Below the pieces are notes generated by a model, which worked only from the letters and a program-made list of their open reading frames with translations, searched no databases and was not told where the DNA came from. A DNA stretch of 48,138 nt from sequence record PV340574.1; one strand, given 5' to 3'. Of this stretch, positions 6,893 to 7,400 are shown piece after piece (the first letter of the stretch is position 1; each line of letters starts with the position of its first letter). This stretch comes from Escherichia phage PhiR63_2. A program made the translations under genes and the position numbers.

Positions 6893-7165
6893 TCATCTCG
6901 CCGTCAGTTGTTTTGATTTCCGGTAGCCTGCCGCGTAAAGAGCTACGTTCGGAAGACAAGTTGAACCTTCATATTTTCTGGTCAACGTTGTCAGAGTTAT
7001 CACTTCTGCTCTCATTGCTGGTTTGAGCTTGCATTGCAAGACCACTCGTGAAGGGGTTGGCCTGTGTAGCTTGTCGGAGCTGATCGCCTCCTGACTTTGC
7101 AGATTTGCGCGACGAGCTCTACGGCGAGAAGCTGCGGTGCCTTTAAATTCTGTTTTTCTGGACAT
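6893..7165 (-). CDS. N: N-like transcription antiterminator (about 90 aa), not lambda-type
   Basis: Arginine-rich motif near the N-terminus (KGTAASRRRARRANL); GGAGG Shine-Dalgarno immediately before the ATG at 7165; lies between pL/nutL and sieB. Start taken at the internal Met of the 114-aa ORF. Confidence 0.7.
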   Translation of the reverse strand: MSRKTEFKGTAASRRRARRANLQSQEAISSDKLHRPTPSRVVLQCKLKPAMRAEVITLTTLTRKYEGSTCLPNVALYAAGYRKSKQLTAR

Positions 7166-7264
7166 GGATTCCTCCCGAATAAACTTTGGCGATGCAATCT
7201 CGAAGCTCCTCCTGAGACGGTTGCTTCGGCATTGCATCCCACAGCTTATGTGGTTGGGTGATCT

Positions 7265-7309
7265 GGCTTTTCAGCCACGTAGTCGAGAGTCGACGTTGTT
7301 TAAAGAGCC
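7265..7309 (-). promoter_or_regulatory. Candidate nutL (boxA 7294-7309, boxB hairpin 7265-7276)
   Basis: Minus-strand GCTCTTTAAACAACG and GGCTGAAAAGCC hairpin; the same boxA-spacer pattern recurs after cro. Confidence 0.45.
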
Positions 7310-7339
7310 TGCCAGTCTGTTCCATTTGGCTTCCAGCGT

Positions 7340-7400
7340 CCTGCTGACGGTTAAATAGTACGATATGTACTTTACAAGATCAATACAATTTGTTGTAAGT
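7340..7400 (-). promoter_or_regulatory. Candidate pL promoter / OL operator region
   Basis: Minus-strand TTGATC -17 bp- TACTAT; near-palindromic GTACGATATGTAC and TACAATTTGTTGTA elements sharing GTACATAT/TTGTA motifs with the cI-cro intergenic region. Exact operator boundaries not resolved. Confidence 0.3.

Follow-up and report, generated by a model that had tools for sequence, protein, structure and literature searches.

Which N antitermination system governs the early genes of a lambda-like phage whose immunity region is of another type, and how far has that system been exchanged as a unit? The question is raised by Escherichia phage PhiR63_2 (PV340574.1), analysed here as one window of 48,138 nucleotides (nt), the full length of the stretch. 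Its immunity and early-control region can be recognized as that of a lambda-like temperate coliphage from gene order, profile matches and mapping of the annotation of phage VT2-Sakai (AP000422 / NC_000902). A sequence-only reading had proposed that this region contains an antiterminator gene N unlike that of lambda, that N is accompanied by two matching N-utilization (nut) sites, and that antitermination specificity was swapped together with the immunity region as a module. As judged by its sequence, the region very probably encodes processive antitermination by a complete N/nut system of the VT2-Sakai type.

N and its two nut sites

The open reading frame (ORF) of 90 amino acids (aa) at 6893–7165 on the minus strand is indeed the N gene, as the sequence-only reading had it. 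The product matches the Pfam family PF25694 (N_peptide) with 112.5 bits against a cutoff of 27.9 (E=1.5e-32) and phrog_271, 'anti-termination protein N-like' (E=2e-24), and it is identical to VT2-Sakai N (BAA94119) at 89 of 90 residues (98.9%, one residue differing). Translation starts at an ATG lying five bases 3′ of GGGAGGA; the Shine–Dalgarno sequence GGGAGG, read directly at 7171–7176 (minus strand), precedes this codon by five bases, and the same start is annotated in VT2-Sakai. A longer ORF of 114 aa starting at 7237 was rejected, as its start falls within a leader hairpin and lacks a ribosome-binding site, whereas the start of the 90-aa ORF is preceded by GGGAGG and agrees with the annotation of relatives.

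Residues 9–25 of N form an arginine-rich motif, GTAASRRRARRANLQSQ, and the protein ends in a conserved C-terminus, CLPNVALYAAGYRKSKQLTAR. With its 90 aa and the motif GTAASRRRARRANLQ, N is of the VT2-Sakai type. The N of Shigella phage POCJ13 is 84% identical, and the 127-aa N proteins of phages 933W and H-19B are about 41–42% identical; the latter type is distinguished by the motif RRRERLKAK and, relative to H-19B, by a gap of 37 residues in the window protein. The last 24 residues are also common to P22 gp24 and to the N proteins of HK140 and VT1-Sakai. The description of N as unlike lambda N is correct for most of the protein: no whole-protein likeness to lambda N was found beyond a weak match of 63 residues that has the motif at its centre (pairwise E=5e-4), and there is no profile match to the lambda-N family. 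The arginine-rich motif itself, however, resembles that of lambda, with 9 of 15 positions matching (AASRRRARRANLQSQ versus AQTRRRERRAEKQAQ). A search of the Protein Data Bank (PDB) chain sequences with N gave no match, since the N peptides in solved complexes are either too short or too far diverged.

Both proposed nut sites are borne out, each with a boxA and a boxB hairpin consisting of a 5-bp stem capped by GAAA. The leftward site, nutL (7264–7309, minus strand), reads GCTCTTTAAACAACG and comprises boxA GGCTCTTTA (7301–7309), a spacer hairpin GTCGA-CTC-TCGAC (7282–7294), a UACG linker and boxB TGGCT-GAAA-AGCCA (7264–7277; UGGCU-GAAA-AGCCA in RNA). The rightward site, nutR (9945–9990, plus strand), begins 11 nt after the cro stop codon and reads GCTCTTTGTAACAACG, with boxA CGCTCTTTG (9945–9953), a spacer hairpin GGAC-ATTC-GTCC (9961–9972), the UACG linker and boxB TCGCT-GAAA-AGCGA (9977–9990; UCGCU-GAAA-AGCGA in RNA). 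The two match each other, as had been claimed, in their boxA core, ACAAC, UACG and GAAA boxB; that each spacer forms a hairpin of its own had escaped the sequence-only reading. The boxA-spacer pattern given there, GCTCTTT(A/G)(A/T)AACAACG, fits nutR and misses nutL: written as GCTCTTTRWAACAACG, it matches nutR alone even when two mismatches are allowed, since nutL is one base shorter. The correct common form is GCTCTTT-(A/GT)-AACAACG. Both sites coincide without mismatch with the leftward and rightward 'putative N-utilization' features of AP000422.

The sites stand out in the window. The motif ACGTSGCTGAAAAGCSAG, a pattern composed after the sites had been seen, occurs exactly twice in 48 kb versus 0.03 occurrences expected, and a generic grammar (the boxA core followed within 12–60 nt by a 5-bp stem with a GA..A loop) returns these two sites only, each just downstream of an early promoter. 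With boxA omitted, both fold as two adjacent hairpins of −12.0 and −11.7 kcal/mol (z about −2.5; 3 of 200 shuffles as good). A permissive Rfam search of 5500–11000 gave no nut or boxB family, only chance matches.

The positions of promoters and terminators agree with this arrangement. The leftward promoter pL (TTGATC, 17 nt, TACTAT; 7355–7383), nutL and N follow one another on the minus strand; the pL operon thus begins with N, and a nut site stands between promoter and N. The operators OL (7356–7372, 7381–7397 and 7414–7430) overlap pL, and the rightward promoter pR (9663–9691, plus strand) is accompanied by OR at 9616–9632, 9642–9658 and 9674–9690. A simple sigma-70 scan missed both pL and pR, which were therefore placed through the VT2-Sakai annotation: its pL, three OL, three OR, pR, pRM and rho-dependent terminator map to the window with 0–4 mismatches (0–4 for pL and OL; 0–3 for pR and OR). 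The terminator feature, a 'putative rho dependent terminator for pR transcript', maps without mismatch to a tR1-like region between nutR and cII (10020–10045, plus strand), which is also identical to the H-19B nutR/tR1 region of published assays (PMC3526286); it would be the first rightward barrier for N to overcome. Leftward, an intrinsic-terminator-like hairpin with an 8-bp stem followed by TTTTTT (5725–5746, minus strand) lies in a segment of the leftward operon that is 97% lambda-like and is a likely downstream target of N-modified polymerase. Terminator-like sequences are present downstream of both nut sites.

The element is already known, ordinary and common, as follows from the AP000422 annotation and from its frequency in Escherichia coli; the type was deposited around 2000. 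At a threshold of at least 80% coverage of N plus nutL, it is present in 759 of 5426 complete E. coli genomes, about one in seven, among them Nissle 1917 and the type strain ATCC 11775. Escherichia phages ev207, ev017 and PhiR57_1 are 100% identical to the window over 6800–7450. RefSeq labels the identical N and its neighbour 'hypothetical protein', for example in Nissle 1917 (NZ_CP022686.1, 4788441–4788868), and phage records say N.

Correspondence of N and nut sites among relatives

Conservation was assessed in 160 IMG/VR loci around relatives of window N and of the N of phage epsilon34, drawn from 672 IMG/VR relatives in all (452 + 220), together with eight named phages; the loci counted below are those of related phages, some of them duplicated between collections. 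All share one plan: ACAA(C/U), a hairpin, UACG and boxB. The stems of GAAA-loop boxB elements are UGGCU/AGCCA, UCGCU/AGCGA, CGGCU/AGCCG and AGGCU/AGCCU. In a gap-free alignment of the sites of one class of N (class A, defined below), the boxB helix is 100% paired over ten distinct sequences, two of its five pairs show compensatory changes (U-A/A-U/C-G at pair 1, C-G/G-C at pair 2), and no slid register pairs above 50%. The class A loops are GAAA or, in one relative, GCAA, both of the GNRA type. The sequence-only reading had named the absence of a conserved boxB-type hairpin in homologous phages as grounds for abandoning the idea; the hairpin is present. The spacer hairpin occurs in three unrelated sequences (GUCGA/UCGAC, GGAC/GUCC and GAUUC/GAAUC), and its variation is mostly confined to the loop, with one double change from GGAC/GUCC to GGGC/GCCC. 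Pair counts were taken from the gap-free class A alignment and explicit sequence parsing. MAFFT was also run on 33 distinct nut cores; the resulting alignment was set aside because it placed no gap in the GAAA-versus-GACAA loop, leaving the 3′ arms out of register.

The arginine-rich motifs fall into two classes. Class A, RRR[A/E][R/H]RAxLQ, is found in the window, VT2-Sakai, POCJ13 and the epsilon34 type; class B, RRRERLKAK, in H-19B, 933W and Oslo. Across the 119 loci with N as well as nutR, the nutR loop is GAAA with every class A motif (96/96) and GACAA with every class B motif (23/23). Spacer, linker and stem of nutR are identical in both classes and the loop differs by one base; the 119 loci span 11 Cro types, five of which occur with both N classes. 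At nutL, class A goes with GAAA at 103 of 104 loci and GCAA at the other, and class B with GACAA at 18 of 25 and with divergent loops at seven. The N of the epsilon34 type is a natural hybrid that joins a class A motif to a 933W-like body, and its boxB loops are GAAA. The single GCAA belongs to nutL of POCJ13 (L084), whose motif carries two changes (RRRAHRAELQ). In Salmonella phage Oslo (L089), the nutL boxB has diverged to GCUC-CGUCAAC-GAGC, and the nutR loop is still GACAA, closed by a U-G pair.

Presence of boxA follows the length of N. The 90-aa proteins are accompanied by a perfect GCUCUUU core in both nutL (74/74) and nutR (68/68), in contrast to those of 120 or 127 aa, with which nutL has no boxA (55/55) and that of nutR varies. 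The nut features that mark the VT2-Sakai type, a consensus boxA combined with a GAAA tetraloop boxB, are recorded for these 74 nutL and 68 nutR sites. The tracking of boxA by N length concerns loci L004–L170 (for example epsilon34, L086; 933W, L002; H-19B, L170), and it may relate to the independence from boxA and NusB that is reported for H-19B N.

A two-part matching code, in which the boxB loop is determined by motif class and the need for boxA by the N body, is a tentative proposal that we regard as possible. In its first part, RRRxRRAxLQ would go with a true GNRA tetraloop and RRRERLK with GACAA. Lambda N recognizes a GNRA fold and needs a closing U-A pair (PMC12027372), and in the P22 complex N makes contact with the C that loops out of GACAA (PMC12550061); the matching of motif class and loop is consistent with these solved complexes. 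The counts of motif against loop and of length against boxA are suggestive and do not amount to independent tests.

Proposed mechanism and known counterparts

The mechanism proposed here follows the general scheme of N antitermination in lambda-type systems (PMC8632103). On loss of repressor, RNA polymerase would initiate at pL and pR. The nut RNA would emerge when some 40 nt of the transcript from pL have been made and, on the transcript from pR, directly behind cro. The arginine-rich motif of N would bind boxB, the middle of N would bind NusA, which would sit on the spacer, and NusB/NusE (S10) would bind the consensus boxA, for which boxA must be single-stranded (PMC3177189). Contact of the conserved N C-terminus with polymerase would confer resistance to both Rho-dependent and intrinsic terminators. 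The modified polymerase would then pass tR1 rightward into cII–O–P and beyond, and the leftward terminators into the recombination genes. RNA binding, use of Nus factors and read-through are predicted by analogy with work on lambda and H-19B. For the latter, the nutR–tR1 template of the published assays corresponds to that of the window from the spacer hairpin to cII, except for a missing loop C and two substitutions; its boxA differs. On this template, N and NusA protect boxB and spacer and block Rho, and point mutants in the motif of H-19B N are defective, while its C-terminal region is needed at distant terminators (PMC3526286).

The N leader contains a long hairpin (7179–7249, minus strand), positioned after nutL and before the ribosome-binding site. 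It has a minimum free energy (MFE) of −39.3 kcal/mol (z=−4.6), and none of 200 shuffles was as stable. Its flanks, CCAAAG.../...CACCAAAGTT, are kept around different stems in the leaders of lambda, P22, 933W, epsilon34 and HK140. From its position, the hairpin probably corresponds to the RNase III site through which translation of lambda N is controlled.

The closest counterpart is VT2-Sakai, where not only N and the nut sites but also pL/OL, OR/pR, cI, cro and tR1 are of the same type. The phages differ in that the window phage is lambda-like, with structural and replication genes of the Lambdavirus type, whereas VT2-Sakai is a short-tailed Shiga toxin 2 (Stx2) phage; in addition, the window has sieB beside N, and the genes in the position of rex differ. 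Comparison with the experimentally studied N systems of H-19B and 933W (Neely and Friedman; Sen laboratory), which the sequence-only reading had recommended, reveals one Pfam family and two distinct types. Shared are the middle segment and the C-terminal 21 residues of N, together with ACAAC, spacer hairpin, UACG and the plan of boxB; the nutR spacer, boxB stem and tR1 have the same sequence. The dyad symmetry characteristic of the H-19B/933W-type spacer is found in the window, whose nutR has exactly the H-19B hairpin. In contrast, N is 90 aa long here and 127 aa there, the motif is RRRARRANLQ and not RRRERLKAK, the boxB loop is GAAA in both window sites and GACAA there, and nutL has a consensus boxA here and none there.

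Lambda shares with the window the position and logic of the N gene, the similar motif, a boxA upstream of boxB, and a 5-bp boxB stem with a U-A closing pair beneath a G-A-A-A purine loop; relative to lambda nutR, the window boxB mainly lacks one loop A. The lambda loop is a pentaloop (GAAAA/GAAGA) as opposed to a tetraloop, and its spacer is shorter and has no hairpin. Lambda boxA is GCUCUUA, unlike the GCUCUUU of the window, which is the rrn form of boxA. P22 gp24 is 79% identical to window N over the C-terminal 24 residues, sieB adjoins the antiterminator gene in P22 as well, and P22 has the boxA GCUCUUUA. Its motif is GNAKTRRHERRRK, however, it has no spacer hairpin, and the C of its GACAA boxB loop is looped out and contacts the peptide (PMC12550061). 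The epsilon34 type (Salmonella P22-like phages) has the motif class RRRERRAALQ, GAAA boxB loops at both nut sites and the same nutR spacer hairpin, but its N has a 933W-like body of 120 aa, its nutL is without boxA and its nutR boxA is degenerate. Phage 21, represented here by its published loop, has a boxB hexaloop, CUAACC (PMC12550061), that the GAAA of the window does not match.

Mosaic structure, rival readings and significance

The flanks are lambda-like, as had been described: 2200–6274 and 10310–12345 are both 97% identical to lambda. Between these arms, N/nutL/pL–OL (6893–7599) is 93% identical to VT2-Sakai, and cI/OR/cro/nutR/start of cII (8950–10412) is 96.6% identical. The proposed swap of N together with the immunity region stands insofar as N, nut sites, operators, cI and cro are all of the VT2-Sakai type; the block itself is mosaic and not one module. 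The sieB region (6275–6892; gene 6295–6876, plus strand) is 88% identical to P22 sieB and 94% to that of VT1-Sakai, and is neither of the lambda nor of the VT2-Sakai type. Its junction with N falls at 6893, exactly at the conserved 3′ end of N; the last 24 N codons there are common to N genes of the P22, HK140, H-19B and VT2-Sakai types and may act as a recombination joint. The segment 7477–7598 is 90% lambda-like. In cI (8948–9607, minus strand), the half encoding the C-terminal S24 peptidase (8947–9358) is 93% identical to lambda cI DNA and the N-terminal DNA-binding half is not; VT2-Sakai cI shows the same half-lambda pattern. In the position of rex, between cI and the cI-operon terminator (7577–7598, minus strand), stand two unrelated overlapping genes (7602–8908, minus strand). 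Among relatives, the 90-aa N with a GAAA nutR is found with six Cro types; by these pairings and those of the five Cro types noted above, N/nut type and immunity type reassort.

These observations bear on how much was exchanged and with what effect. In its strongest form, the module idea holds that N, both nut sites and the immunity region are one indivisible unit, swapped in a single event that brought a new specificity. Two VT2-Sakai-type segments between lambda-like outer flanks speak for it, as does the fact that the Cro type of the window is the commonest partner of the 90-aa N (50 of 68 loci); yet the adjoining sieB is of the P22/VT1-Sakai type, a different cassette occupies the rex position, the same N/nut set keeps company with six Cro types, and five Cro types take either N class. 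The claimed change of specificity is unproven, since the motif is the most lambda-like part of N and boxB is close to that of lambda. Taken together, we consider the strong form possible but doubtful. The opposite view, that window N and lambda N are cross-compatible in RNA binding and the swap neutral for specificity, draws on the same similarities: the matching motif positions, the retained U-A closing pair and G-A-A...A, and the reliance of lambda N on a GNRA fold with that closing pair (PMC12027372). It is nevertheless unlikely, given that the lambda pentaloop extrudes its fourth base whereas the window has a plain tetraloop, that the position of lambda Trp18 is Glu in window N, and that the remainder of N is unrelated to lambda N and outside its family. 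The one-base loop difference also follows motif class perfectly in the comparison with 933W, which argues that loop length matters.

Whether the system works in the manner of H-19B is a related question. H-19B N reportedly acts independently of boxA, NusB and S10, and the H-19B spacer hairpin is said to be a 'reducer'. Were the same true here, these factors would be dispensable and the hairpin would merely shorten the RNA between functional elements. The nutR spacer hairpin, UACG linker, boxB stem and tR1 that the window has in common with H-19B would fit, as would the middle segment of N (EAISSxxLHRPTxSR) and its C-terminus. Such a mode is improbable in view of the perfect GCUCUUU beside every 90-aa N, the missing nutL boxA and variable nutR boxA of the longer proteins, and the absence from the 90-aa N of a 37-residue segment of the H-19B body; strict boxA conservation argues for an N that would be lambda-like in its need for boxA, NusB and S10. 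A different role for boxA, in which it would form an alternative, nut-regulating structure with the 3′ half of boxB, is suggested by MFE folds of the complete sites, which pair GCUCUUU with GAAAAGC. The first four bases of boxA (GGCU in nutL, CGCU in nutR) equal the inner four of the 5′ arm of boxB in the same site, so the 3′ arm can pair with either, and full-length folds pick boxA; the first boxA base, G in nutL and C in nutR, matches the C or G of the 3′ arm. However, these folds are no better than shuffles (z −1.1 and −1.9), the pairing is broken in nutL variants with U or A at that position, epsilon34-type sites share motif and boxB yet have no boxA, and NusB/NusE need a single-stranded boxA (PMC3177189). 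As a conserved structure it was rejected; a regulatory role is very improbable, and the pairing is probably incidental, being unconserved in relatives. Finally, the RefSeq label 'hypothetical protein' in E. coli genomes would suit an ORF that is no gene, or not N, beside hairpins that are chance or plain terminators. Family matches, gene position, conservation and covariation all oppose this, and the profile matches and covariation effectively refute it.

The identification of a complete N/nut system of the VT2-Sakai type has points standing against it as well. No published experiments on the 90-aa VT2-Sakai-type N itself were found in the literature searched, and function is assigned to N and nut in the window by homology, not by assay. 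Because the loci are related and partly duplicated, the perfect associations represent fewer independent events than the counts suggest, and the match of nutL to N could be explained by linkage alone, as nutL lies within 150 nt of N.

The remaining features of the locus complete the gene order. A lambda-type ral gene (minus strand) is leftmost, followed by sieB and N; beyond the rex-position genes and cI, OR and pR span 9616–9691 and pL with OL 7355–7430, cro lies at 9719–9934 (plus strand), and cII (10076–10372) is followed by lambda O and P. Of the rex-position pair (both minus strand), gene 1 encodes 185 aa with matches to DUF6978 (below threshold), PADLOC PDC-M24A (E=5e-4) and phrog_2017, and gene 2 encodes 250 aa with matches to DUF1828 (E=5e-8), PADLOC PDC-M24B (E=5e-10) and phrog_1960. 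The two genes are a candidate defence cassette that the prophage would express. No tRNA genes were found in the window.

For genome annotation, the finding is of small importance, the locus being a textbook N/nut cassette that is very common in E. coli prophages; the name N can safely be transferred to the RefSeq 'hypothetical protein' entries in hundreds of complete E. coli genomes. The natural variants, in turn, provide a ready protein–RNA matching table, with loop base set against motif class and boxA against N length. If the two-part code were true, the 90-aa N would represent a minimal antiterminator that depends on boxA and NusB, H-19B-type N would have its 37-residue insert in place of boxA, NusB and S10, and the GAAA and GACAA pairs would be naturally orthogonal peptide–RNA tethers. 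The table could inform work both on the reported independence of H-19B-type N from NusB and S10 and on orthogonal N–boxB tethers.

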